From the NCBI RefSeq assembly GCF_011045215.1, contig NZ_CP049201.1: a DNA stretch of 64,000 nt; one strand, written 5' to 3'. This document shows, one piece after another, positions 9,356-63,268 of the stretch. Below the pieces are notes generated by a model that was given only the letters and a program-made list of their open reading frames with translations, was not told the DNA's origin and made no database searches. How positions within the stretch are numbered: position 1 is the first letter of the stretch; each line of letters opens with the position of its first letter. Both the position numbers and the translations under genes were made by a program. Source of the stretch: Escherichia coli (lineage in GTDB: Bacteria > Pseudomonadota > Gammaproteobacteria > Enterobacterales > Enterobacteriaceae).

Positions 9356-9772
9356 TTAATATCCCTGCTCGAAATAGCTTTCGAGAATAATAACCGCAGA
9401 GGCAGAGTCGACTTTGCCTTTGTTAAGCGCCCGATAGCCGCCCTGTTCAAACAGACCGGAACGGGCTTCCACGGTGCTAAGACGCTCGTCATGGAGCTTT
9501 ACTTCAACACCGAAACGACCATGAATACGGTTGGCAAATTTACGCGCTCTGGCGGTTAACGGCTGTTCGGTACCGTCCATATTCAGCGGCAAACCAACGA
9601 TGATTTCGTCCGGCTGCCACTCTTTCAGTAAACGTTCGATGAGATTCCAGTCCGGCGTACCGTCCTGTGCTTTAATTGCAGGCAATGGGCGAGCGGTGCC
9701 GGTAATGCGTTGGCCGACCGCTACGCCAATGCTTTTGGTACCGAAGTCGAAGGCGAGTAAGGTTCCACTCAT
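9356..9772 (-). CDS. ruvX: Holliday junction resolvase-like / pre-16S rRNA nuclease (YqgF)
   Basis: Internal start [20 protein letters not shown] (138 aa); the ORF track extends upstream into yqgE. Confidence 0.9.
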
Positions 9773-10335
9773 CAGGCGTGTCCTGCCACACCAGGCATGG
9801 TGAGAATATCCACACCAATCAGTTTTGCCGCCTCGCGCCAGCGGTCGGCAATTGGCGTTTTGAACAGAATATTCAGATCTGCCGGGGCGGTTAGCCACGC
9901 GTTATCGAGAATTTCTTGTTCCAGTTGACCTTTCTCCCAGGAGGCATAACCCAGAGCCACCAATACGTCAGACGGTTGTTTATCGGTGCCGAGCGTTTCC
10001 AGCACATCGCGGGAAGTGGTCATTACCGTGTTGTCTGAAATGCGAATGCTGGAAGCAAAATTAGAGGGCGGAGTATGCAAAATAAACCCGCGATCTTCAG
10101 CCAGTGGGCCGCCGAGCATAACCGGTTTATCCAGACGGATTGATTCATCACGCGGCTCCGGCGTGATCTTCAGCTTTTCCAGAATCCCTTCAATTTTGAG
10201 ATTTTCCAGCGGCTTGTTGACGATGATCCCCATTGCACCATTGGTATTATGTTCGCAAATGTAGACCACGGAACGACGGAAAATCGGATCCTGGAGAGCA
10301 GGCATGGCAATAAGAAAGTGATGCTGTAAATTCAT
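9772..10335 (-). CDS. yqgE: UPF0301 family protein YqgE
   Basis: Start at [13 protein letters not shown] (187 aa); stop overlaps ruvX start. Confidence 0.85.
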
Positions 10336-22369: not shown

Positions 22370-22646
22370 GTTTTTTCTTCCGCACAAGGTCAGGATTATT
22401 CTATAAATGCGCCGTTTGCAGGTGAACCGACGCTCAGTCTCAGTATAAGGAAAAGCGCAGCGGACGGGCGAGTAGATTGCGCAACATGCGAGCATGATCC
22501 AGAGATTTCTGAAGCGGCAAAAGGATGTTCCATGTACATGACGCGCGGCTTGCGGTAAATTGTTGGCAAATTTTCCGGCGTAGCCCAAAACGCGCTGTCG
22601 TCAAGTCGTTAAGGGCGTGCCCTTCATCATCCGATCTGGAGTCAAA

Positions 22647-24638
22647 ATGTCCTCACGTAAAGAGCTTGCCAATGCTATTCGTGCGCTGAGCATGGACGCA
22701 GTACAGAAAGCCAAATCCGGTCACCCGGGTGCCCCTATGGGTATGGCTGACATTGCCGAAGTCCTGTGGCGTGATTTCCTGAAACATAACCCGCAGAATC
22801 CGTCCTGGGCTGACCGTGACCGCTTCGTGCTGTCCAACGGCCACGGCTCCATGCTGATCTACAGCCTGCTGCACCTCACCGGTTACGATCTGCCGATGGA
22901 AGAACTGAAAAACTTCCGTCAGCTGCACTCTAAAACTCCGGGCCACCCGGAAGTGGGTTACACCGCTGGTGTGGAAACCACCACCGGTCCGCTGGGGCAG
23001 GGTATTGCCAACGCAGTAGGTATGGCGATTGCAGAAAAAACGCTGGCGGCGCAGTTTAACCGTCCGGGCCACGACATTGTCGACCACTACACCTACGCCT
23101 TCATGGGCGACGGCTGCATGATGGAAGGCATCTCCCACGAAGTTTGCTCTTTGGCGGGTACGCTGAAGCTGGGTAAACTGATTGCGTTCTACGATGACAA
23201 CGGTATCTCTATTGATGGTCACGTTGAAGGCTGGTTCACCGACGACACCGCAATGCGTTTCGAAGCTTACGGCTGGCACGTTATTCGCGACATCGACGGC
23301 CATGACGCGGCATCTATCAAACGCGCAGTTGAAGAAGCGCGCGCAGTGACTGACAAACCGTCCCTGCTGATGTGCAAAACCATCATCGGTTTCGGTTCCC
23401 CGAACAAAGCCGATACCCACGACTCCCACGGTGCGCCGCTGGGCGACGCTGAAATTGCCCTGACCCGCGAACAGCTGGGCTGGAAATACGCGCCGTTCGA
23501 AATCCCGTCTGAAATCTATGCTCAGTGGGATGCGAAAGAAGCAGGCCAGGCGAAAGAATCTGCATGGAATGAGAAGTTTGCGGCTTACGCGAAAGCTTAT
23601 CCGCAGGAAGCAGCTGAATTTACCCGCCGTATGAAAGGCGAAATGCCGTCTGACTTCGACGCCAAAGCGAAAGAGTTTATCGCTAAACTGCAGGCTAATC
23701 CGGCGAAAATCGCCAGCCGTAAAGCGTCGCAGAATGCTATCGAAGCGTTCGGCCCGCTGTTGCCGGAATTCCTCGGCGGCTCCGCTGACCTGGCACCGTC
23801 TAACCTGACCCTGTGGTCTGGTTCTAAAGCAATCAACGAAGATGCTGCGGGTAACTACATCCACTACGGTGTTCGCGAGTTCGGTATGACCGCGATTGCT
23901 AACGGTATCTCCCTGCACGGTGGCTTCCTGCCGTACACCTCCACCTTCCTGATGTTTGTCGAATACGCACGTAACGCCGTACGTATGGCTGCGCTGATGA
24001 AACAGCGTCAGGTGATGGTTTACACCCACGACTCCATCGGTCTGGGCGAAGACGGCCCGACTCACCAGCCGGTTGAGCAGGTCGCTTCTCTGCGCGTGAC
24101 CCCGAACATGTCTACATGGCGTCCGTGTGACCAGGTTGAATCCGCGGTCGCGTGGAAATACGGTGTTGAGCGTCAGGACGGTCCGACCGCGCTTATCCTC
24201 TCCCGTCAGAACCTGGCGCAGCAGGAACGTACTGAAGAGCAACTGGCAAACATCGCGCGCGGTGGTTATGTGCTGAAAGACTGTGCTGGTCAGCCGGAAC
24301 TGATCTTCATCGCCACCGGTTCTGAAGTTGAACTGGCGGTTGCTGCCTACGAAAAACTGACTGCCGAAGGCGTGAAAGCGCGTGTGGTGTCCATGCCGTC
24401 TACCGACGCATTTGACAAGCAGGATGCGGCTTACCGTGAATCCGTACTGCCGAAAGCGGTTACTGCACGCGTTGCTGTAGAAGCGGGTATTGCTGACTAC
24501 TGGTACAAGTATGTTGGCCTGAACGGTGCTATCGTCGGTATGACCACCTTCGGTGAATCTGCTCCGGCAGAGCAACTCTTTGAAGAGTTCGGCTTCACCG
24601 TTGACAACGTTGTTGCGAAAGCAAAAGAACTGCTGTAA
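22647..24638 (+). CDS. tktA: Transketolase 1
   Basis: Start at [41 protein letters not shown] (663 aa). Confidence 0.95.
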
Positions 24639-24654
24639 TTAGCATTTTGGGTAA

Positions 24655-24681
24655 AAAGGTCGCTTCGGCGACCTTTTTTAT
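24655..24681 (+). terminator. tktA rho-independent terminator
   Basis: aaaggtcgc-ttcg-gcgaccttt followed by ttttatt. Confidence 0.6.
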
Positions 24682-24951
24682 TACCTTGACATGTCCGTTT
24701 TCGGACGAGCAATAGATAAAGCGTGTTGTAGATCACAAATATTTATATGCAATAAATATCAATTATGTAATATGCATCACGATATGCGTGTTGACATTTG
24801 TTGTTATATCTATAACTCAATGTTATATAAGAAATTAATAATTCACTGTTTTCAAAACACCGGTTTCCCTGCTCAATTGCTTTCATTAAACCGCACGAGT
24901 ATTTTATTTTTACCGCCGGACGGTACCCTAAAAATAAAATAAGGATAATTT

Positions 24952-25395
24952 ATGCGGCTTAGTGATTATTTTCCAGAATCATCAATCTCAGTTATACATT
25001 CAGCAAAAGATTGGCAGGAAGCTATCGATTTCTCGATGGTATCATTGCTGGATAAAAACTATATCAGCGAGAATTACATTCAGGCAATTAAAGATTCCAC
25101 CATTAACAATGGCCCTTATTATATTCTCGCACCAGGCGTGGCAATGCCTCATGCGCGACCGGAATGTGGGGCGCTTAAAACCGGGATGTCTTTGACATTA
25201 CTTAAACAAGGCGTTTATTTCCCGGGGGATGACGAACCGATTAAATTACTCATCGGACTTTCTGCTGCCGATGCCGATTCGCACATTGGCGCTATTCAGG
25301 CGTTAAGTGAATTACTGTGCGAAGAAGAAATACTCGAACAACTCTTAATAGCATCATCAGAAAAACAATTAGCGGACATTATCAGCCGCGGATAA
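24952..25395 (+). CDS. cmtB: PTS mannitol-type EIIA component (cryptic)
   Basis: 147 aa; EIIA(Mtl)-family size and conserved His region (GVAMPHARPE); precedes the EIICB gene. Confidence 0.8.
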   Translation: MRLSDYFPESSISVIHSAKDWQEAIDFSMVSLLDKNYISENYIQAIKDSTINNGPYYILAPGVAMPHARPECGALKTGMSLTLLKQGVYFPGDDEPIKLLIGLSAADADSHIGAIQALSELLCEEEILEQLLIASSEKQLADIISRG

Positions 25396-25422
25396 TTACT
25401 CTCTCCTCTACAGGATAATATT

Positions 25423-26811
25423 ATGGAAAACAAGTCTGCTCGTGCAAAGGTCCAGGCTTTTGGGGGCTTTTTGACTGCAATGGTCATCCCCAATATTGGT
25501 GCTTTTATTGCCTGGGGTTTTATTACTGCGTTATTTATTCCCACCGGTTGGCTGCCTAACGAACATTTCGCCAAAATTGTCGGCCCGATGATTACCTATT
25601 TATTGCCCGTGATGATTGGTTCTACCGGTGGTCATCTGGTCGGCGGTAAACGCGGCGCGGTTATGGGCGGAATAGGTACTATTGGTGTGATCGTCGGCGC
25701 AGAGATCCCGATGTTCCTTGGCTCAATGATTATGGGGCCGCTCGGTGGGCTGGTCATAAAATATGTCGATAAGGCACTGGAAAAACGCATACCTGCTGGT
25801 TTTGAGATGGTTATCAATAACTTCTCATTAGGTATCGCGGGGATGCTCCTTTGTCTGCTGGGTTTTGAAGTGATCGGCCCGGCGGTGTTAATTGCCAATA
25901 CTTTCGTCAAAGAGTGTATTGAGGCGCTGGTACATGCGGGTTATCTGCCTCTGCTGTCAGTCATCAATGAACCGGCGAAAGTGCTTTTCCTTAATAATGC
26001 GATCGATCAGGGCGTCTATTATCCGCTGGGAATGCAACAGGCTTCGGTTAACGGTAAATCCATCTTCTTTATGGTGGCCTCTAACCCAGGTCCGGGCCTG
26101 GGGCTGCTGCTGGCGTTTACCTTGTTTGGTAAAGGGATGAGTAAACGTTCTGCGCCCGGGGCGATGATTATTCACTTCCTCGGTGGGATCCACGAACTGT
26201 ATTTCCCATATGTGCTGATGAAGCCGCTGACTATTATTGCCATGATTGCGGGCGGTATGTCTGGCACCTAGATGTTTAACTTACTGGACGGTGGTCTGGT
26301 GGCTGGCCCAAGTCCGGGGTCTATCTTTGCTTACCTGGCGCTGACGCCGAAAGGTTCGTTCCTGGCGACAATTGCCGGTGTTACGGTAGGTACCCTGGTG
26401 TCCTTTGCTATCACTTCGCTGATACTGAAGATGGAAAAAACGGTGGAAACGGAGAGCGAAGATGAGTTTGCTCAGTCAGCCAATGCGGTTAAGGCGATGA
26501 AACAAGAGGGTGCATTCTCGTTAAGCAGGGTTAAGCGTATCGCCTTTGTTTGCGATGCGGGGATGGGCTCCAGTGCGATGGGCGCGACCACCTTCCGTAA
26601 ACGCCTGGAAAAAGCGGGGCTGGCAATTGAAGTAAAACATTACGCCATAGAAAACGTGCCTGCGGATGCGGATATCGTCGTTACTCATGCCAGTCTGGAA
26701 GGGCGCGTGAAACGTGTGACGGATAAACCACTGATATTGATTAATAACTATATTGGCGATCCAAAACTCGACACTTTATTTAATCAATTAACCGCCGAAC
26801 ATAAACACTGA
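25423..26811 (+). pseudogene. cmtA: PTS mannitol-type EIICB component, interrupted by in-frame amber codon
   Basis: ORFs 25423..26271 (282 aa) and 26272..26811 (179 aa) are contiguous in one frame, separated only by TAG at 26269..26271; combined length equals a 462-codon EIICB gene. Confidence 0.7.
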
Positions 26812-26825
26812 TTACAGAGGTAAAA

Positions 26826-28103
26826 ATGAAAACCAAAGTTGCTGCTATTTATGGCAAGCGGGATGTCCGTCTGCGCGAATTTGAACTGCCAGAAATTACC
26901 GATAATGAATTACTGGTGAGTGTGATTTCTGACAGCGTCTGTTTATCCACCTGGAAAGCGGCGTTACTCGGTAGTGAACATAAACGCGTACCCGACGATT
27001 TAGAAAATCATCCGGTCATTACCGGGCATGAATGTGCTGGGGTTATTGTCGAAGTGGGTAAAAATCTCACTGGCAAATATAAAAAAGGCCAGCGTTTTGT
27101 ATTGCAACCGGCGATGGGGTTACCAAGCGGATATTCAGCGGGCTACAGCTACGAATATTTTGGCGGCAATGCCACTTATATGATTATTCCCGAAATCGCC
27201 ATTAATTTGGGCTGCGTATTACCGTATCACGGCTCTTATTTTGCTGCGGCGTCGCTGGCAGAGCCTATGTGCTGCATTATTGGTGCTTATCATGCCAATT
27301 ATCACACCACGCAATATGTTTATGAGCATCGCATGGGCGTCAAACCTGGCGGCAATATTGCACTGCTGGCGTGTGCAGGTCCGATGGGCATTGGCGCTAT
27401 CGATTACGCCATTAACGGCGGCATACAACCGTCGCGGGTGGTGGTGGTCGATATCGACGACAAACGTCTGGCGCAGGTACAGAAGCTGCTGCCGGTGGAA
27501 CTGGCGGCCAGTAAAGGCATTGAGCTGGTGTATGTGAATACCAAAGGGATGAGCGATCCTGTCCAGATGCTGCGGGCGCTGACAGGAGATGCCGGGTTCG
27601 ATGACATTTTTGTTTATGCGGCGGTGCCTGCTGTCGTTGAGATGGCTGATGAATTACTGGCGGAAGATGGCTGTCTGAACTTCTTTGCCGGGCCGACGGA
27701 TAAAAACTTCAAAGTGCCGTTTAATTTCTACAACGTTCATTACAACAGCACGCACGTCGTCGGTACATCCGGCGGTTCAACGGACGACATGAAAGAGGCA
27801 ATTGCCCTTAGCGCCACTGGGCAGTTACAGCCGTCGTTTATGGTGACCCATATCGGTGGCCTGGATGCGGTGCCAGAAACCGTGCTCAATCTGCCGGATA
27901 TCCCTGGCGGTAAAAAACTCATTTATAACGGCGTGACCATGCCGCTCACTGCCATTGCCGATTTTGCCGAAAAAGGCAAAACCGAACCGCTGTTTAAAGA
28001 GTTGGCGCGGCTGGTTGAGGAAACGCACGGCATCTGGAATGAACAGGCCGAGAAATATCTGCTGGCACAATTTGGCGTTGATATCGGGGAGGCCGCGCAA
28101 TGA
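26826..28103 (+). CDS. yggP: Zn-dependent medium-chain dehydrogenase/reductase, YggP-like
   Basis: 425 aa; MDR zinc-site Cys/His (GHECAG) and Rossmann glycine motif (CAGPMGIGA). Confidence 0.8.
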   Translation: MKTKVAAIYGKRDVRLREFELPEITDNELLVSVISDSVCLSTWKAALLGSEHKRVPDDLENHPVITGHECAGVIVEVGKNLTGKYKKGQRFVLQPAMGLPSGYSAGYSYEYFGGNATYMIIPEIAINLGCVLPYHGSYFAAASLAEPMCCIIGAYHANYHTTQYVYEHRMGVKPGGNIALLACAGPMGIGAIDYAINGGIQPSRVVVVDIDDKRLAQVQKLLPVELAASKGIELVYVNTKGMSDPVQMLRALTGDAGFDDIFVYAAVPAVVEMADELLAEDGCLNFFAGPTDKNFKVPFNFYNVHYNSTHVVGTSGGSTDDMKEAIALSATGQLQPSFMVTHIGGLDAVPETVLNLPDIPGGKKLIYNGVTMPLTAIADFAEKGKTEPLFKELARLVEETHGIWNEQAEKYLLAQFGVDIGEAAQ

Positions 28104-29065
28104 TGTCCCTGGCGTGGCCATTATTTCGCGTTACGGAACAGGCAGCATTGGCTGCCTGGCCGCAAACCGGATGTGGCGACAAAAATAAAATTGATGGCCT
28201 GGCGGTCACCGCGATGCGCCAGGCATTAAACGACGTCGCTTTTCGTGGACGAGTGGTTATCGGCGAAGGAGAAATTGACCATGCGCCGATGCTGTGGATT
28301 GGCGAAGAGGTGGGCAAAGGCGATGGGCCAGAAGTCGATATCGCGGTTGATCCCATTGAAGGCACGCGGATGGTGGCGATGGGGCAGAGCAATGCGCTGG
28401 CGGTCATGGCTTTCGCCCCTCGAGATAGCCTGTTACATGCGCCTGATATGTATATGAAAAAGCTGGTTGTTAATCGACTGGCTGCCGGGGCGATTGATCT
28501 GTCTTTGCCTCTGGCGGACAACTTGCGTAACGTGGCGCGGGCGTTAGGTAAACCGCTGGACAAGCTGCGCATGGTTACGCTGGATAAACCGCGTCTGAGT
28601 GCCGCGATTGAGGAAGCAACACAGCTGGGGGTGAAAGTTTTTGCCCTGCCGGATGGCGATGTCGCCGCCAGCGTGCTGACCTGCTGGCAGGATAATCCTT
28701 ACGACGTGATGTACACCATCGGCGGCGCGCCGGAAGGCGTGATTTCTGCCTGTGCAGTCAAAGCGTTAGGCGGAGATATGCAGGCGGAATTAATCGATTT
28801 TTGTCAGGCTAAAGGGGATTACACGGAGAATCGGCAGATTGCAGAGCAGGAACGCAAGCGTTGCAAGGCAATGGGCGTTGACGTTAACCGTGTGTACTCG
28901 CTCGACGAACTGGTGAGGGGGAACGATATCCTCTTTAGCGCTACGGGCGTCACGGGCGGCGAGCTGGTGAACGGTATCCAACAGACGGCGAATGGGGTGC
29001 GGACGCAGACATTACTGATCGGCGGCGCGGACCAAACGTGTAATATAATAGACTCCCTGCATTGA
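28100..29065 (+). CDS. yggF: Class II (GlpX-type) fructose-1,6-bisphosphatase homologue
   Basis: 321 aa; GlpX-like sequence; start overlaps yggP stop. Confidence 0.8.
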   Translation: MMSLAWPLFRVTEQAALAAWPQTGCGDKNKIDGLAVTAMRQALNDVAFRGRVVIGEGEIDHAPMLWIGEEVGKGDGPEVDIAVDPIEGTRMVAMGQSNALAVMAFAPRDSLLHAPDMYMKKLVVNRLAAGAIDLSLPLADNLRNVARALGKPLDKLRMVTLDKPRLSAAIEEATQLGVKVFALPDGDVAASVLTCWQDNPYDVMYTIGGAPEGVISACAVKALGGDMQAELIDFCQAKGDYTENRQIAEQERKRCKAMGVDVNRVYSLDELVRGNDILFSATGVTGGELVNGIQQTANGVRTQTLLIGGADQTCNIIDSLH

Positions 29066-29086
29066 TGGTGATCTATCGGAAGACCA

Positions 29087-29596
29087 ATGGCGACGCTGAC
29101 AGAAGATGATGTGCTTGAGCAACTGGATGCACAGGACAATTTATTTTCATTTATGAAAACTGCGCATTCTATTTTGCTCCAGGGAATACGCCAGTTTCTG
29201 CCGTCGCTGTTTGTCGATAACGATGAAGAGATCGTGGAATATGCAGTGAAGCCGTTACTTGCCCAAAGCGGCCCGCTTGACGATATTGATGTTGCGCTGC
29301 GTTTGATTTATGCGCTGGGGAAAATGGATAAATGGCTGTACGCCGATATCACTCATTTTTCCCAGTTCTGGCATTACCTGAACGAACAGGATGAAGCGCC
29401 CGGATTTGCCGATGACATGACCTGGGATTTTATCAGCAACGTCAATAGCATAACCCGCAATGCGATGCTCTATGACGCGTTAAAAGCGATGAAGTTCGCT
29501 GATTTCGCCGTCTGGTCAGAGGCGCGTTTTAGCGGGATGGTCAAAACGGCGCTGACGCTGGCAGTAACGACCACCTTAAAGGAATTAACGCCGTGA
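29087..29596 (+). CDS. yggD: MtlR-like small protein (YggD/FumE)
   Basis: 169 aa, MATLTEDDVLEQLDAQDNLFSFMKTAHSILLQGIRQF. Confidence 0.7.
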   Translation: MATLTEDDVLEQLDAQDNLFSFMKTAHSILLQGIRQFLPSLFVDNDEEIVEYAVKPLLAQSGPLDDIDVALRLIYALGKMDKWLYADITHFSQFWHYLNEQDEAPGFADDMTWDFISNVNSITRNAMLYDALKAMKFADFAVWSEARFSGMVKTALTLAVTTTLKELTP

Positions 29597-30306
29597 AAAT
29601 TGAATTAACGGTGAATGGGCTGAACGTGCAAGCGCAGTACCATGAGGAAGAGATAAAACGCGTGCATAAACCGTTGCTGCGCATGTTGGCGGCCTTACAG
29701 ACGGTAAATCCGCAGCGGCGAACCGTGGTTTTTCTTTGCGCTCCGCCGGGAACGGGAAAATCGACCCTGACTACCTTCTGGGAATATCTCGCGCAACAAG
29801 ACCCCGAACTGCCCGCTATCCAGACGCTCCCGATGGATGGTTTTCACCATTACAATAGCTGGCTGGATGCGCATCAGCTACGCCCGTACAAAGGCGCGCC
29901 GCAGACATTTGATGTGGCAAAACTGGCAGAAAAATTGCGCCAGGCAGTGCAGGGCGACTGTACGTGGCCGCAGTACGATCGACAAAAACATGATCCGGTA
30001 GAAGATGCGTTGCATGTTACCGCACCAATAATCATCGTCGAAGGAAACTGGCTATTGCTGGATGACGAGAAGTGGCGCCAGCTTGCGCAATTTTGTGATT
30101 TCTCGATCTTTATTAACGCGCCCGCAGCGGCGTTGCGGGAGCGTCTGGTGGGGCGCAAGCTGGCGGGAGGGTTATCGCTGGCAGACGCAGAAGCTTTTTA
30201 TGACCGTACCGACGGGCCGAATGTTCGCCGGGTGCTGGAAGAGAGTCTGCCTGCAAATTTGACCTTAATGATGACCGCTACGGGTGAATATCGTCTGGTG
30301 GATTAA
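29593..30306 (+). CDS. yggC: P-loop nucleoside/pantothenate kinase-like protein YggC
   Basis: 237 aa; Walker A APPGTGKST. Confidence 0.8.
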   Translation: MKIELTVNGLNVQAQYHEEEIKRVHKPLLRMLAALQTVNPQRRTVVFLCAPPGTGKSTLTTFWEYLAQQDPELPAIQTLPMDGFHHYNSWLDAHQLRPYKGAPQTFDVAKLAEKLRQAVQGDCTWPQYDRQKHDPVEDALHVTAPIIIVEGNWLLLDDEKWRQLAQFCDFSIFINAPAAALRERLVGRKLAGGLSLADAEAFYDRTDGPNVRRVLEESLPANLTLMMTATGEYRLVD

Positions 30307-30955
30307 TGTTCCTGATTAGACCATCTTCCAGTCGCACCACACGAGAGAAATGACGCCGGGTAAATGCGGCGTCATGACTGATTGCTACGACGCTCGTGCC
30401 TCGCTGGCGGCACTTCTCCAGCCAGCTTTCAAACACGCTCAACCAATTTTCGTCAAAATCCCGACTCGGCTCGTCCAGCAGCAATAGTGGCGGAGAGAGT
30501 GCTTCCAGGCAGGCGACGGCGACCATCCGTCGCTGCGCACTATGCAGATCCAACGGGTGCGCGCTGGCAGTGTCTGCTAACTGACAACATTGCAGGGCAG
30601 CATGGGTACGTTGAGTGATTTCATCCGCCGGGCATTTTTGCAGTTTCAAACCAAATGCGATCTCGTCAGCGACGGTGCTGTGAAAAAGTTGGTTTTCCGC
30701 TTCCTGAAACAGTACGCCAATCTTTGCCGCGCGCTGGCGGTTTTTCAGGTTTTTCATCGCCTGTTGTTGCCGCATAACCGTACCGGCTGTGGGCGTAAGA
30801 AGACCTGCCATTACTCGTAACAGCGTCGATTTCCCTGCGCCATTGTCACCGGTCAGCGCCAACCATTCACCTTGTTTGAGTTGCAGAGAAATGTCGCAAA
30901 GACAATCCGTTGCCGCGCCAGGCCAGCGATAAGATATCTGATTTAACGTTAACAT
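30278..30955 (-). CDS. ABC-type ATPase (EcfA-like) with degenerate signature motif
   Basis: Walker A GDNGAGKST, Walker B LLLLDEP, but signature region reads LHSAQRRM instead of LSGGQ; start chosen at MLTLNQISYRW; 3' end overlaps yggC 3' end by 29 bp. Confidence 0.7.
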   Translation of the reverse strand: MLTLNQISYRWPGAATDCLCDISLQLKQGEWLALTGDNGAGKSTLLRVMAGLLTPTAGTVMRQQQAMKNLKNRQRAAKIGVLFQEAENQLFHSTVADEIAFGLKLQKCPADEITQRTHAALQCCQLADTASAHPLDLHSAQRRMVAVACLEALSPPLLLLDEPSRDFDENWLSVFESWLEKCRQRGTSVVAISHDAAFTRRHFSRVVRLEDGLIRNINPPDDIHP

Positions 30956-31632
30956 AGTGGCTGGAGCGCTCCGTTTTGCAATTGCCACGCTTGCTGGCAG
31001 TAGTTCAGGAAAGGTGTGCGATGACGTTCAAAAAGAATAATCAGCGAACCACGTTCAAACGCCCAGTGTTGTAATCGCTGCAACAGCATTTCGCTGGCCT
31101 GCGGCGTCAGGCGGCTAAAGGCTTCATCAAGAATTAATAGCTTTGGCTGCATCGCGATGGCGCAGGCGATGACCACGCGCTGTGTCTCTCCACCGGAGAG
31201 TGTTGCTGGGTGACGATGGCGCAACGGCTGGCACTCGGTCAGAGTCAGGGCGGCATCAATCCGCGCCATAATCTCTGCTTCAGCAAGACACAGATTTTCT
31301 GGCCCAAAGGCAACTTCTTCTTCCACGCTAAAGGTACAGCCGGAGAGCTGCAAATAGGGCGATTGCTGGACGAGCTGGATGGTGGCGGATTGTTCATTAA
31401 GCGGGAGATGCCCAATGGGCGTACCGAGGAGCGTCCCCGTGCCTGTTATCTCTCCTGGCAGAAAGTCCGGATACCAGCCCGCCATCAGCTGTGCCAGCGT
31501 ACTTTTGCCACTGCCGTTGTCACCAAAGATGGCGACCATCCCCGGTTTGACATAGTGAAAGTTATAACAGAACGGAGGATGCGTTGAGTGTGTCGGGCAA
31601 TAACGGAACTGTTCTAACGTAACCATATCCAC
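30949..31632 (-). CDS. ABC-type ATPase (EcfA-like), canonical motifs
   Basis: Walker A GDNGSGKST, signature LSGGETQRV, Walker B LLILDEA; start uncertain by a few codons. Confidence 0.75.
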   Translation of the reverse strand: MDMVTLEQFRYCPTHSTHPPFCYNFHYVKPGMVAIFGDNGSGKSTLAQLMAGWYPDFLPGEITGTGTLLGTPIGHLPLNEQSATIQLVQQSPYLQLSGCTFSVEEEVAFGPENLCLAEAEIMARIDAALTLTECQPLRHRHPATLSGGETQRVVIACAIAMQPKLLILDEAFSRLTPQASEMLLQRLQHWAFERGSLIILFERHRTPFLNYCQQAWQLQNGALQPLC

Positions 31633-32321
31633 GCTCCGAATTCTGTCAGCATCAGCAAGATCATGGTGTAACGCGCTACGCGTTGTAGGGTGCTATCGGC
31701 TGGTGCCCACAACGTTGTTCGTCGGTTGTGGATCCGAAATGCCCGCATATCCAGCGCCGCACCGCGGACAGCAAGATCGTTTAGCGCATTGTGTGTTAGC
31801 GGAATAATTAACGCGGGCATCGCACGTAAACGCTGATACCAGCCCTCATCCAGCGGCACGCCGCGGGCACGCTGCGCTTCATGAATAATCGCTAATTGCC
31901 GTTTTAACTGCTCAACGACCAATAACGGACCGGCAAACAGATAAGCGACGCCTGGCGGCAGGCGAGAAGCAAACAGAGCGCGGATAAAACATTGCACGGG
32001 GACGTACTGCATCCACAACTGTGAGGTTGAAACAATCGCCAGAATCCGCAACCAGAGCGTAATAGCATGCGTCCAACGCTCCGGCGAACGCGGCGTGCCG
32101 CTTAGCCATTCTGTTAGCCAGCCACCGTGTACCAGCCACAGCCCGGCTCCCAGCGAGAACATCAGCCAGACGACATATTTTGCCCGCCGCCGCGTGGCCT
32201 TTAGCGCAATAAGGCAGAAAAAGGTCGCCGCGCTATAGACTGGCAGTATTGTCTGTGTGGGCAGGATAAGCGTGGTGCAGGCCGCCAATGCCCATAGTGT
32301 TAATGAGGTAAATGGATGCAT
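31614..32321 (-). CDS. ECF transporter T component (EcfT/CbiQ-like)
   Basis: 235-aa multi-TM protein with two Ala-Arg-Gly-type coupling motifs (EAQRARGVP and DLAVRGAAL) in the C-terminal half; directly upstream of two ABC ATPase genes. Confidence 0.65.
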   Translation of the reverse strand: MHPFTSLTLWALAACTTLILPTQTILPVYSAATFFCLIALKATRRRAKYVVWLMFSLGAGLWLVHGGWLTEWLSGTPRSPERWTHAITLWLRILAIVSTSQLWMQYVPVQCFIRALFASRLPPGVAYLFAGPLLVVEQLKRQLAIIHEAQRARGVPLDEGWYQRLRAMPALIIPLTHNALNDLAVRGAALDMRAFRIHNRRTTLWAPADSTLQRVARYTMILLMLTEFGAWIWLR

Positions 32322-32900
32322 TTAGCGCACGGCAGCCATTGCCGGAAAATGGCGCGTGGTGCGAATCGGCAGCTGGCGCAGTAAAAGCCAGACAATCACC
32401 GCTGTAAGAGTTTTATCGACCAGGTTCGCGCCTATCACTGTAATTGCCACCGACTCCACCAGGTTTTGCCCCATCGAGTGCATCCAGGCAACGAACAAAT
32501 CGGCTCCGCTACCGGTGACACCGCCGAACAGCGCAGTACGCAGCGGTACAGCGACGACCGTTACCGCAAGCGTAATAATCACGCCGCTGACAACGACTTT
32601 TGGCAGGGTGCGGAACCAACCCGCTCGCGCCAGCCAACCAGCGACCAGGCCGATGACCATCGCCACGGGCGCAAATGCGGCGGCGATCGGGTCGGTCAGC
32701 AATCCCCAGAGTAAATTGGTCAGTAAGCCGGTCAGCATCCCGATCACCGGACCAAGCAGTACCGCGCTAATAAGTGTGCCGATGGAGTCGAGAAATATAG
32801 GTAATTTGACCATGCTGGCCAGTTGCCCGCCGATCATATTGATGGCGATAGATATAACGATCAACACCAGTGCCTGACTGGAAAAGTGGCTACGCGCCAT
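32322..32900 (-). CDS. Small integral membrane protein, probable ECF substrate-specific (S) component
   Basis: ~192 aa from MARSHFSSQALVLIVISIAIN (ORF-track upstream extension would overlap the PPC gene); 5-6 predicted TM segments; position directly upstream of T component. Confidence 0.5.
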   Translation of the reverse strand: MARSHFSSQALVLIVISIAINMIGGQLASMVKLPIFLDSIGTLISAVLLGPVIGMLTGLLTNLLWGLLTDPIAAAFAPVAMVIGLVAGWLARAGWFRTLPKVVVSGVIITLAVTVVAVPLRTALFGGVTGSGADLFVAWMHSMGQNLVESVAITVIGANLVDKTLTAVIVWLLLRQLPIRTTRHFPAMAAVR

Positions 32901-32922
32901 AAGAAAACCTCTCTGAAAGTAG

Positions 32923-33354
32923 TTATTTAACGGGGGAAATATGCAACTCGTCGTAACCAGAAAGCGCGCAAGGTTGGCGGCTAAACGCCAGTTCCTCAAG
33001 GCTACCGATCACCAGTTCAAGCGTGGTCCGCACGGTACAGCCGGGCATCATATGACCGCCAAGCATCGTGCCGTGTGGATCGGAAACGCAGAGATGAAGA
33101 TGCTCACCACTCTGTTCCAACGTGCCGTTTAGTGAGATCACTTCGAATGTACCGTTCAGGAGCGTGGTGCCTTCTTGCCCGGCATAGCGCAAGGCGATGT
33201 CAGTCAGGCTACCGGTACAGCCTGCAATCCAGGCGGCATGAAGTTGCTGCTGCTGTGCAAAAGCGTGTAGCTGGGAAAAAACTTCCTGCCCGGGGAGGAG
33301 GCGCAGTGCGTAAAAGCGTGCGGAGGAAGAATATGGGTAGGGCAATGTCATCAT
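32923..33354 (-). CDS. PPC/DUF296-domain protein
   Basis: 143 aa; pattern G.FEV.SLNGTL....HLH......G...GGH...GC.V....E.V resembles the PPC (plants-and-prokaryotes conserved, DUF296) fold; first gene of the operon. Confidence 0.6.
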   Translation of the reverse strand: MMTLPYPYSSSARFYALRLLPGQEVFSQLHAFAQQQQLHAAWIAGCTGSLTDIALRYAGQEGTTLLNGTFEVISLNGTLEQSGEHLHLCVSDPHGTMLGGHMMPGCTVRTTLELVIGSLEELAFSRQPCALSGYDELHISPVK

Positions 33355-33588
33355 TGGAGTACTCCGAAACTCGGACGTATTGCGGATAATATCGACGCTG
33401 CATCAGTCATATTCTGATATAAGTCAGGGTTTGTGACGGCACAACGAAAAGATTTTGCTACGCTTATTCGTGATTCTGCAAAGTGGAATAAATTCCACAG
33501 GGGCGGGGCTGAAAACGTGACGTAAGTCAGATATTTGTTTTCTTTGACTGGACAATCATTCCTTTTATTCCACGTTTCGCTTATCCTA

Positions 33589-50290: not shown

Positions 50291-50424
50291 TATCCGTTTT
50301 CCCCACATTTGCAGTGCCGTGCATATGTCTTTGCGAGTCTGCTCGAATAAAGAAATTAAAGTCAGATCAATGCGTTGTCTTTGTATGTGAAGGATTTACG
50401 ATGGCGAGGCAGCATGGGGCTGTA

Positions 50425-50575
50425 ACGGTAAAGCCCTCACCGAAGCGAGGGCTTGAAGGAGAAGGGTTATGATGCGACTTGCCATCATACTGATTGTACT
50501 GTTACTCATAAGTTTCCCAGCTTATTAACAGTCAGTCACAGGGGAGGAGTAATCCTCCCTTACCCTTACTCACTA
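50425..50575 (-). ncRNA. Sib antisense RNA (antitoxin), copy 1, boundaries approximate
   Basis: Inferred from Ibs/Sib architecture (antisense sRNA spanning the toxin ORF); conserved hairpins at 50433..50452 and 50605..50631; ends not determined. Confidence 0.4.
50469..50528 (+). CDS. Ibs-family type I toxin peptide (19 aa)
   Basis: atg atg cga ctt gcc ... MMRLAIILIVLLLISFPAY; aggaga RBS upstream; too short for the ORF track. Confidence 0.7.
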   Translation: MMRLAIILIVLLLISFPAY

Positions 50576-50817
50576 AATTAGGTTAAAGAATCAACGATGT
50601 CAATCAGGGCGATGCGGGATGCATCGCCCTGAACCAATCTTGCTGAAGGCCATCTCATCGCCCGCGTTCATTGCGGTAATAAATCCCGTTTTCCCACAAT
50701 AAATTCATACCTTGCATCAGGTTTTACGAGCGCACTCGAAGAAAAGATTTAAAGTAAGATCAATGCGTTGTGGTTATTAAAAGAGAGTTTACGATGGCGG
50801 GGCAGCATGGGGCTGTA

Positions 50818-50968
50818 ACGGTAAAGCCCTCACCGAAGCGAGGGCTTGAAGGAGAAGGGTTATGATGCGACTTGCCATCATACTGATTGTACTGTTACTG
50901 ATAAGTTTCGGAGCTTATTAACAGTCAGTCACAGGGGAGGAGCAATCCTCCCTTACCCTTACTCACTA
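50818..50968 (-). ncRNA. Sib antisense RNA (antitoxin), copy 2, boundaries approximate
   Basis: By analogy with copy 1. Confidence 0.4.
50862..50921 (+). CDS. Ibs-family type I toxin peptide (19 aa), copy 2
   Basis: MMRLAIILIVLLLISFGAY; same RBS context; differs from copy 1 at one residue (P17G). Confidence 0.7.
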   Translation: MMRLAIILIVLLLISFGAY

Positions 50969-51021
50969 AATTAGGTTAAAGAATCAACGATGTCAATCAG
51001 GGCGATGCTGGTGTGTCGCCC

Positions 51022-51570
51022 TCACCACTCCCAGATTTTCGACGGTGTAACCACCGCAGGCAGTGGGATATCCCACTCTTCAACGGGGAGTTTTTCCACC
51101 AACTGACAATCATGCGCATAACCCACCGGTTGCATTTTATAGTGCTGCCAGTTTTGTAAGGTCCGATCATAAAAACCACCGCCCATTCCCAGGCGCTGGC
51201 CGTACTCATCAAAGGCGACCAGCGGTGTGATCAACACGTCTAATCGGGAAAGGGGTAGCACGTCACGCACATCCAATTTTGGCTCATGGATCTTCAACCT
51301 GTTCATCACCAGTTCGCTTTGCGGATGGTAATTCAGGAACAGCAAATTACCGGCACTAAAGGGATGCAAAACTGGAAGATATACGCGCTTACCGGCGCGC
51401 CAGAGTTGTTCTATGAGTGGCTGGGTGTCGAGTTCGCCATCAAAAGAGAGGAATACAGCGACCGTATGTGCCATCACCACCGGGGGATAAGTCATCATCC
51501 GGGTAGCGGCTTGTTGACCCATTTCCTGCTGTTGTTCCGGCGTTAACGTACGACGACGTTGCCGAATCAT
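51022..51570 (-). CDS. ygfA: 5-formyltetrahydrofolate cyclo-ligase
   Basis: Start chosen at MIRQRRRTLTPEQQQEMGQQ (182 aa), downstream of the 6S RNA 3' end; the ORF-track N-terminal extension runs through ssrS. Confidence 0.8.
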   Translation of the reverse strand: MIRQRRRTLTPEQQQEMGQQAATRMMTYPPVVMAHTVAVFLSFDGELDTQPLIEQLWRAGKRVYLPVLHPFSAGNLLFLNYHPQSELVMNRLKIHEPKLDVRDVLPLSRLDVLITPLVAFDEYGQRLGMGGGFYDRTLQNWQHYKMQPVGYAHDCQLVEKLPVEEWDIPLPAVVTPSKIWEW

Positions 51571-58768: not shown

Positions 58769-61642
58769 ATGACACAGACGTTAAGCCAGCTTGAAAATAG
58801 CGGCGCTTTTATTGAACGCCATATCGGACCGGACGCCGCGCAACAGCAAGAAATGCTGAATGCCGTTGGCGCGCAATCGTTAAACGCGCTGACCGGCCAG
58901 ATTGTACCGAAAGATATTCAGCTTGCGACCCCGCCGCAGGTTGGCGCACCGGCGACCGAATACGCCGCGCTGGCGGAACTCAAGGCTATTGCCAGTCGCA
59001 ATAAACGCTTCACGTCTTACATCGGCATGGGTTACACCGCCGTGCAGTTACCGTCGGTTATCCTGCGTAACATGCTGGAAAATCCGGGCTGGTATACCGC
59101 GTATACTCCGTATCAACCTGAAGTCTCGCAGGGCCGCCTTGAGGCACTGCTCAATTTCCAGCAGGTAACGCTGGATTTAACCGGGCTGGATATGGCCTCT
59201 GCTTCTCTTCTTGACGAAGCCACCGCTGCCGCCGAAGCAATGGCGATGGCGAAACGCGTCAGCAAACTGAAAAATGCCAACCGCTTCTTCGTGGCTTCTG
59301 ACGTTCATCCGCAAACGCTGGATGTGGTACGTACTCGTGCTGAAACCTTTGGTTTTGAAGTGATTGTCGATGATGCGCAAAAAGTGCTCGACCATCAGGA
59401 CGTCTTCGGCGTGCTGTTACAGCAGGTCGGTACTACTGGTGAAATTCACGACTACACTGCGCTTATCAGCGAACTGAAATCACGCAAAATTGTGGTCAGC
59501 GTCGCCGCCGATATTATGGCGCTGGTGCTGTTAACTGCGCCGGGTAAACAGGGCGCAGATATTGTCTTTGGTTCGGCGCAACGCTTCGGCGTGCCGATGG
59601 GCTACGGTGGCCCACACGCGGCATTCTTTGCGGCGAAAGATGAATACAAACGCTCAATGCCGGGCCGTATTATCGGTGTATCGAAAGATGCCGCGGGCAA
59701 TACCGCACTGCGCATGGCGATGCAGACTCGCGAGCAACATATTCGTCGTGAGAAAGCGAACTCCAACATTTGTACTTCCCAGGTGCTGCTGGCAAACATC
59801 GCCAGCCTGTATGCCGTTTATCACGGCCCGATTGGCCTGAAACGTATCGCTAACCGCATTCACCGTCTGACCGATATCCTGGCGGCAGGCCTGCAACAAA
59901 AAGGTCTGAAGCTGCGCCATGCGCACTATTTCGACACTCTGTGTGTGGAAGTGGCCGACAAGGCGGGCGTACTGGCGCGCGCCGAAGCGGCTGAAATCAA
60001 CCTGCGTAGCGATATCCTGAACGCGGTTGGGATCACCCTTGATGAAACCACCACGCGCGAAAACGTGATGCAGCTTTTCAGCGTACTACTGGGGGATAAT
60101 CACGGGCTGGACATCGACACGCTGGACAAAGACGTGGCTCACGACAGCCGCTCTATCCAGCCTGCGATGCTGCGCGACGACGAAATCCTCACCCATCCGG
60201 TGTTTAATCGCTACCACAGCGAAACCGAAATGATGCGCTATATGCACTCGCTGGAGTGTAAAGATCTGGCGCTGAATCAGGCGATGATCCCGCTGGGTTC
60301 CTGCACCATGAAACTGAACGCCGCCGCCGAGATGATCCCAATCACCTGGCCGGAATTTGCCGAACTGCATCCGTTCTGCCCGCCGGAGCAGGCCGAAGGT
60401 TATCAGCAGATGATTGCGCAGCTGGCTGACTGGCTGGTGAAACTGACCGGTTACGACGCCGTTTGTATGCAGCCGAACTCTGGCGCACAGGGCGAATACG
60501 CGGGCCTGTTGGCGATTCGTCATTATCATGAAAGCCGCAACGAAGGGCATCGCGATATCTGCCTGATCCCGGCTTCTGCGCACGGCACTAACCCTGCTTC
60601 TGCAAATATGGCAGGAATGCAGGTGGTGGTTGTGGCATGTGATAAAAACGGCAACATCGATCTGGCTGATCTGCGCGCGAAAGCGGAACAGGCGGGCGAT
60701 AACCTCTCCTGTATCATGGTGACCTATCCTTCCACCCACGGCGTGTATGAAGAAACGATCCGTGAAGTGTGTGAAGTCGTGCATCAGTTCGGCGGTCAGG
60801 TTTACCTTGATGGCGCGAACATGAACGCCCAGGTTGGCATCACCTCGCCGGGCTTTATTGGTGCGGACGTTTCACACCTTAACCTACATAAAACTTTCTG
60901 CATTCCGCACGGCGGTGGTGGGCCGGGTATGGGACCGATCGGTGTGAAAGCGCATCTGGCTCCGTTTGTACCGGGTCATAGCGTGGTGCAAATCGAAGGC
61001 ATGTTAACCCGTCAGGGCGCAGTTTCTGCGGCACCGTTCGGTAGCGCCTCTATCCTGCCAATCAGCTGGATGTACATCCGCATGATGGGCGCAGAAGGGC
61101 TGAAAAAAGCAAGCCAGGTGGCAATCCTCAACGCCAACTATATTGCCAGCCGCCTGCAGGATGCCTTCCCGGTGCTGTATACCGGTCGCGACGGTCGCGT
61201 GGCGCACGAATGTATTCTCGATATTCGCCCGCTGAAAGAAGAAACCGGCATCAGCGAGCTGGATATTGCCAAGCGCCTGATCGACTACGGTTTCCACGCG
61301 CCGACGATGTCGTTCCCGGTGGCGGGTACGCTGATGGTTGAACCGACTGAATCTGAAAGCAAAGTGGAACTGGATCGCTTTATCGACGCGATGCTGGCTA
61401 TCCGCGCAGAAATTGACCAGGTGAAAGCCGGTGTCTGGCCGCTGGAAGATAACCCGCTGGTGAACGCGCCGCACATTCAGAGCGAACTGGTCGCCGAGTG
61501 GGCGCATCCGTACAGCCGTGAAGTTGCGGTATTCCCGGCAGGCGTGGCAGACAAATACTGGCCGACAGTGAAACGTCTGGATGATGTTTACGGCGACCGT
61601 AACCTGTTCTGCTCCTGCGTACCGATTAGCGAATACCAGTAA
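58769..61642 (+). CDS. gcvP: Glycine dehydrogenase (decarboxylating), P protein
   Basis: 957 aa, [22 protein letters not shown]. Confidence 0.95.
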
Positions 61643-61664
61643 TTCACTGATTCGACTATCTTCT

Positions 61665-61686
61665 AAAGGCGCTTCGGCGCCTTTTT
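61665..61686 (+). terminator. gcvP rho-independent terminator
   Basis: aaaggcgc-ttcg-gcgccttt followed by ttt. Confidence 0.6.
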
Positions 61687-61765
61687 AGCTTGTTAATAAA
61701 GTGCGCTTTGTGTGTTTCGGCTGAGGCGTAATATAAAATCTTGCGAGCTCAATATATTAAAAGAG

Positions 61766-61797
61766 TGCCAGGCCTGATGAGCGTATCGCATCAGGCA
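61766..61797 (-). terminator. REP-like hairpin / probable bglA terminator
   Basis: gcctgatg-agcgtatcg-catcaggc palindrome downstream of bglA stop; U-rich on transcribed strand. Confidence 0.45.
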
Positions 61798-61807
61798 CAT
61801 CGGCTAA

Positions 61808-63268
<1,461 letters not shown>

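Follow-up and report, generated by a model that had tools for sequence, protein, structure and literature searches.

The cmtA gene described here lies within a 64,000-nucleotide stretch of Escherichia coli DNA, which we refer to throughout as the window, and its reading frame is divided by an in-frame amber codon. The surrounding genes are arranged on the plus strand as tkt-cmtB-cmtA-yggP-glpX(yggF)-fumE(yggD)-yggC, which is the order typical of E. coli, and cmtB, yggP, glpX, fumE, and yggC are all intact. The two cmtA open reading frames are contiguous and in the same frame (282 and 179 residues, Table 1), and when read through the TAG they form 462 codons whose product matches K-12 CmtA (WP_000428805.1, 462 residues) at every position except residue 283; relative to that protein the lesions amount to one stop and no gaps. 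The first-pass annotation of this DNA had proposed that a single base change to an in-frame amber codon splits cmtA and that read-through would give a 462-codon EIICB protein, and both proposals agree with the open reading frames and with the allele alignment. Pfam identifies PTS_EIIC (PF02378, E 1.5e-29) in the N-terminal reading frame and PTS_IIB (PF02302, E 5.8e-14) in the C-terminal one, with the SPGS loop, the last transmembrane helix, the linker, and EIIB all encoded by the latter. The gene thus has EIIC followed by EIIB with its conserved cysteine, and it occupies the expected position in the E. coli gene order, but it does not have an uninterrupted 462-codon frame, the TAG being at codon 283. 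The cmtA gene here is an orthologue by descent and a pseudogene by state, and the pair of reading frames is a genuine interrupted gene, not a pair of chance neighbours.

Table 1. Features of the interrupted cmtA locus, in window coordinates.
Feature	Coordinates	Strand	Evidence or remark
cmtB (EIIA partner of CmtA), intact, 147 aa	24952..25395	+	Pfam PTS_EIIA_2, E 2e-29
cmtA pseudogene, mannitol-family PTS EIICB	25423..26811	+	Matches WP_000428805.1 except residue 283
N-terminal ORF, 282 codons plus TAG, truncated EIIC	25423..26271	+	ORF, Pfam, AlphaFold2 model
Predicted transmembrane helix containing the stop, codons 268-287	26224..26283	+	AlphaFold2, DSSP, block pLDDT 97-98
Former Dcm site, CCTAG (CCTGG in intact alleles), mutated base 26270	26267..26271	.	
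Amber TAG replacing Trp283 (TGG)	26269..26271	+	
Downstream ORF, 179 codons, beginning at Met284 directly after the stop	26272..26811	+	
SPGS, codons 297-300	26311..26322	+	P298 and S300 invariant in the family
Last predicted transmembrane helix of EIIC, codons 313-337	26359..26433	+	AlphaFold2 model
EIIB domain, codons ~367-462	26521..26808	+	Aligns with 1VKR; Foldseek 1VRV, 1VKR
Cys377, phosphorylatable, in EIIB	26551-26553	+	Nearly invariant in the family
yggP, zinc-dependent dehydrogenase, next gene downstream, intact	26826..28103	+	

The ancestral form of codon 283 is TGG (Trp), which is present in K-12, in AHM8C212RI as the closest haplotype, and in every other intact allele examined. 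A G-to-A transition at position 26270 has turned it into TAG; the AHM8C212RI allele, the closest from a complete genome, differs from that of the window at 2 of 1,389 bases. A tyrosine codon (TAY to TAG) had initially been put forward as the ancestor on the basis of alignment with MtlA, but the comparison with other strains that was suggested at the same time returns the sense codon TGG, and its presence in every intact E. coli allele examined rules tyrosine out as the ancestral residue. The MtlA-like representative of 637 residues has Phe at the position aligned with residue 283, not the expected Tyr. More broadly, column 283 of a 78-sequence CmtA/MtlA alignment is variable and hydrophobic (F 24, L 15, A 11, Y 10, V 5, W 3), with Trp occurring in CmtA of E. 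coli, Citrobacter, and Enterobacter, and Tyr confined to more distant CmtA orthologues such as those of Rahnella and Serratia.

Several other features distinguish the window from its relatives. The locus, gene order, EIIC plus EIIB architecture, and sequence are shared with the cryptic K-12 CmtA and its partner CmtB, although the K-12 cmtA frame is uninterrupted and the window cmtB product carries three unusual substitutions relative to its K-12 counterpart. These changes (E85K, N93D, and T133I) fall in a patch at 25204-25349 with seven substitutions in 146 bp that are present in none of ten other E. coli alleles compared, and the patch looks like a short imported recombination tract; the exact CmtB protein of the window is found on one other contig in the collection. 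Between yggC and epd lies a 3.3-kb segment (30238-33504) that AHM8C212RI lacks and that encodes on its minus strand two ABC ATPases, a weak CbiQ-like T component, an ECF S component, and a PCC-domain protein. This ECF-type transporter island also occurs in six of the other loci compared (L005 and L007-L011), and the adjoining window yggC product is 83% identical to that of AHM8C212RI. Conversely, the window at 61640-61810 has no counterpart of the SDR oxidoreductase gene ygfF, which separates gcvP from bglA in AHM8C212RI; the gcvP-bglA intergenic gap here is approximately 170 bp. There is also a tandem-like repeat of ~110 bp between speB and loiP (21293-21606), and two copies of a ~290-bp sequence, ~93% identical to each other, at 50341-51022, where the reference annotates two Ibs-family type I toxin genes.

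The position of the stop within the protein has a strong bearing on what the truncated product might do. We considered this using an AlphaFold2 model of CmtA built on the family alignment (mean pLDDT 89, pTM 0.77), in which, with DSSP assignment, residue 283 lies inside the transmembrane helix formed by residues 268-287. Following the stop, the model has the SPGS loop (297-300), a short helix, the transmembrane helix of residues 313-337, a linker that is disordered or of low confidence (pLDDT below 50 at 352-362), and EIIB. The best Foldseek match to the model is the E. coli MtlA model, and glucose-family IIC proteins, deposited integrative models of MtlA, PtsG, and PTTBC, and an IICB-Glc cryo-EM structure of low identity are also matched; a search for an experimentally solved EIIC of the mannitol family found none, the solved part being the IIB domain. 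That domain provides an experimental anchor, with the MtlA IIB structure 1VKR aligning with CmtA residues 366-462. E. coli MtlA (EIICBA) shares a homologous EIICB core that is ~50% identical to CmtA, although CmtA is without the fused EIIA of MtlA, its EIIA being the separate CmtB protein.

On this model the stop truncates EIIC itself, some 55 residues short of the end of the membrane domain and some 84 ahead of EIIB. It had been supposed at first that the stop falls between EIIC and EIIB, leaving a permease that lacks only its phosphotransfer domain, but the predicted helix, the invariant P298 and S300 downstream of the stop, and the alignment with 1VKR all place it within the membrane domain, and the EIIC portion is itself incomplete. 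A domain boundary at residue 277 might be suggested by the Pfam PTS_EIIC match, which ends there, although this profile misses the last part of the membrane domain. Translation would therefore end inside an EIIC transmembrane helix, and because the SPGS loop, the last transmembrane helix, and EIIB would all be missing, the 282-residue product is probably an inactive, truncated permease; here loss of function is predicted from the model together with residue conservation.

We considered whether the two reading frames might instead constitute a functional split gene, in which ribosomes reinitiate at the ATG following the TAG and the 282- and 179-residue products reassemble into a working EIICB. 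The stop and start codons are directly adjacent (TAGATG), as in coupled gene pairs, both reading frames are otherwise undamaged, and E. coli provides documented cases both of ribosomes reinitiating after an amber codon and of complementation between the parts of split membrane transporters. However, the ATG is the ancestral Met284 codon and the TAGATG adjacency is incidental, and the ribosome-binding signal of a coupled pair is not seen: the best anti-Shine-Dalgarno duplex ahead of the ATG at 26272 is -3.1 kcal/mol and does not exceed the background across cmtA codons (-3.7 +/- 2.5). In addition, the break is predicted to be inside a transmembrane helix and not in a loop, and the allele is found infrequently, in scattered lineages, and nothing suggests that it is maintained. 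A consensus scan for an internal promoter or terminator near the stop gave fewer matches than shuffled controls, and none was relevant. Some termination-reinitiation at Met284 is plausible, and a small amount of the 179-residue piece could perhaps be made in this way, but it would not support transport without an intact EIIC. With no Shine-Dalgarno signal above background and with the split inside a helix, a two-piece CmtA transporter is unlikely to work, and we regard the functional split gene as very improbable overall.

Alternatively, the stop could be read through, either by an amber suppressor tRNA or through natural leakiness, at a level sufficient to provide full-length CmtA. A suppressor could be located elsewhere in the genome, with which the contents of the window are compatible, and near-cognate tRNAs do decode UAG at a low level. 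Against this, natural isolates seldom carry suppressor alleles and read-through at its basal level usually stays well under 1%, and ARAGORN finds no tRNA gene in the 64-kb window. Moreover, programmed recoding is expected to leave a stop conserved among orthologues, and at codon 283 all of the orthologues examined have sense codons, with TAG in none. Useful read-through is thus extremely unlikely, and a truncated, probably inactive permease is the reading that we carry forward.

Because the former Dcm site coincides exactly with the mutated base, an artefact of sequencing must be weighed with some care. About 70% of the consensus errors made with default ONT models occur in CCAGG/CCTGG motifs (PMC6591954), so a nanopore basecaller could in principle have written CCTGG as CCTAG with no stop being present in the cell. 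One of the TAG-bearing loci (L007, a 4.95-Mb contig) has frameshifted neighbouring genes suggestive of a long-read-only assembly, and since such an assembly may contain indel errors its TAG carries less weight than those of the other loci. In that assembly (GCA_964041975.1) cmtB is shortened to 139 residues and an ABC ATPase gene is truncated (9531-9950 and 15159-15533). In the window, however, inner-C transitions are present at 2 of the 166 aligned Dcm sites of AHM8C212RI, compared with 3 of 158 in the reverse comparison, so changes at Dcm sites are not in excess, and about 60 other genes are without stops, indels, or frameshifts. A 7.9-kb part of the window (positions 21498-29395), TAG included, is reproduced with 100% identity in an independent Logan assembly built from reads, SRR11014969_216, which is also the only other contig in the collection with the unusual CmtB allele of the window. 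The allele is furthermore present in many fragmented draft assemblies (for example HVH 121, BFZF01, BICN01, and BEIW01) which, judging by their fragmentation, are probably derived from short reads. An artefact is accordingly highly improbable, and the TAG at 26269-26271 is real.

The W283* allele is nonetheless infrequent among finished genomes. A 61-base query centred on the stop matches 5,373 of 5,426 complete E. coli genomes, and the match is exact in WEM25 only, where cmtA (NZ_CP061530.1) is annotated by RefSeq as a pseudogene with an 'internal stop' and has the same W283* TAG as the window. The corresponding 61-mer of the commonest TAG haplotype is exact in one further complete genome, that of strain 700481, giving a total of two in about 5,400, and the possibility raised in the first-pass annotation that the TAG is universal in intact cmtA genes does not hold. 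Representation is greater in a larger protein collection, with the exact 282- and 179-residue products on 174 and 176 contigs respectively. The TAG-bearing contigs are mostly short and come from multi-contig draft assemblies, which also speaks against an artefact. E. coli HVH 121, for instance, carries split products (EQR36559.1 and EQR36558.1) of 282 and 179 residues identical to those of the window, and several draft assemblies are similar. The window itself has a best 24-kb identity of 99.0% among complete RefSeq E. coli genomes. We conclude that W283* is a rare but recurrent loss-of-function allele of a dispensable gene, and one already annotated as a pseudogene elsewhere.

The sequence context of the substitution points to how it may have arisen. 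The ancestral ACC TGG contains a Dcm site, CCTGG, at 26267-26271 that is now CCTAG, and G26270 is paired with the methylated inner cytosine of the bottom-strand CCAGG. The change is therefore an inner C:G transition in an ancestral CCWGG, as expected of a Dcm hotspot. Dcm is near-universal in E. coli, and CCTGG to CCTAG is a textbook signature of 5-methylcytosine deamination. The scenario that we favor is a spontaneous G-to-A change in which the bottom-strand 5-methylcytosine deaminated to thymine and escaped very-short-patch repair, turning Trp283 into an amber codon. Strains deficient in Vsr show frequent C-to-T changes at 5-methylcytosines, and Vsr limits such changes (PMC2715241). This scenario would have Dcm active in the strain from which the window derives, dcm and vsr both being located outside the window. 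As a separate observation, CTAG tetranucleotides occur seven times in the 64-kb window compared with ~249 expected from base composition, one of the seven having been created by the cmtA mutation. Scarcity of CTAG is a known property of E. coli genomes.

The classic amber hotspots of lacI provide the closest parallel. These are Dcm-site CAG to TAG changes on the coding strand, and as with W283* a transition at the methylated C:G pair of an ancestral CCWGG gives an amber codon, and does so recurrently. They differ in that W283* would reflect deamination on the non-coding strand (TGG to TAG) and is found in natural populations, whereas the lacI mutations were recovered in a laboratory mutant screen.

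Recurrence in independent lineages is another property expected of a hotspot, and it is seen with W283*. In a neighbour-joining tree constructed from 2,516 bp (cmtA from nucleotide 166 onward and all sequence through the end of yggP, leaving out the focal site), the TAG is found on five or six cmtA-yggP haplotype groups, each with zero to eight differences from a TGG neighbour: the window is three differences from its nearest TGG haplotype and 25 from the nearest other TAG haplotype, and the corresponding figures are 0 and 16 for L009 and 8 and 13 for L006. The WEM25 allele is on a K-12-like haplotype that carries E128D and has 17 further cmtA differences from the window, and this difference in haplotype points to an independent origin of its W283*. 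Dcm-site transitions can create just three stops in cmtA (Q11*, W31*, and W283*), and the other two are also found, as TAG codons, in public genomes: Q11* in four loci (L022, L025, L028, and L029) and W31* in two (L012 and L019), with the carriers of each scattered over separate groups of the same tree. The exact truncated product of W283* is on 174 contigs, compared with 54, 43, 33, 22, 16, and 5 for six stops arising by non-Dcm transitions. The difference is compatible with a hotspot, but these counts are semi-quantitative only, since clonal sampling skews them and some of the control fragments are 'partial' proteins from the ends of contigs.

A different explanation for this distribution is that one ancient W283* allele has been spread by homologous recombination without repeated origin. 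E. coli does recombine, and the window has a mosaic character, with cmtA 99.9% identical to AHM8C212RI compared with ~98.2% for its flanks; some TAG carriers within the large haplotype group also differ by only zero to two sites. However, the longest tract that could be common to the window and another TAG haplotype measures 107 bp (26233-26339), and over this tract the TGG versions of the two haplotypes are identical as well. Compared with the commonest TAG group, the nearest difference is just 5 bp upstream of the mutated base, at 26265, and Q11* and W31* show the same scattered pattern as W283*. Some of the apparently independent W283* origins could be due to recombination over short tracts, but single origin with recombination appears unlikely for the window's allele, and as a general account of W283* it is improbable. 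Recurrent mutation offers the more economical reading of the haplotype pattern, the combination of a mutational hotspot and a dispensable gene having led unrelated E. coli lineages to acquire the same allele on several occasions. Taking these considerations together, cmtA in the window is very probably a true pseudogene that lost its function through a recurrent G-to-A change at a Dcm hotspot.

The cmtA gene is also disrupted in a variety of other ways elsewhere. Among loci L012-L030, which represent cmtA 5' ends in public genomes, there are IS1 insertions (including that of E. coli HS), a one-base deletion in a G run, a 10-bp duplication, and conversion of W31 to TGA; one of these loci, L015, is from an engineered strain in which TetR and GFP genes precede cmtA. 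The literature searched assigns no substrate to CmtA, and yielded an aminoglycoside-uptake study together with incidental mentions. In that study 26 transporters were deleted singly and the tobramycin MIC rose significantly only when cmtA was removed, and cmtAB was found to be under CRP control and induced by uridine (PMC12412646). The many routes to a knockout and the tobramycin effect of the deletion raise the possibility that loss of cmtA is positively selected, beyond neutral decay at a hotspot, although we consider this unlikely. If it were so, recurrent W283* could mark low-level adaptation to aminoglycosides or to some other cost of CmtAB expression. Given the reported effect of the deletion on the tobramycin MIC, natural cmtA-null alleles could slightly alter aminoglycoside susceptibility.

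There are also practical consequences. The two reading frames are best merged in annotation as one flagged pseudogene, as the NCBI pipeline does for WEM25, and stops at CCWGG sites should be checked against nanopore methylation artefacts. For the wider biology W283* is a minor matter, being an ordinary loss-of-function allele at a mutational hotspot. It is nevertheless a neat natural case of a Dcm/5-methylcytosine hotspot repeating one nonsense allele in wild E. coli.
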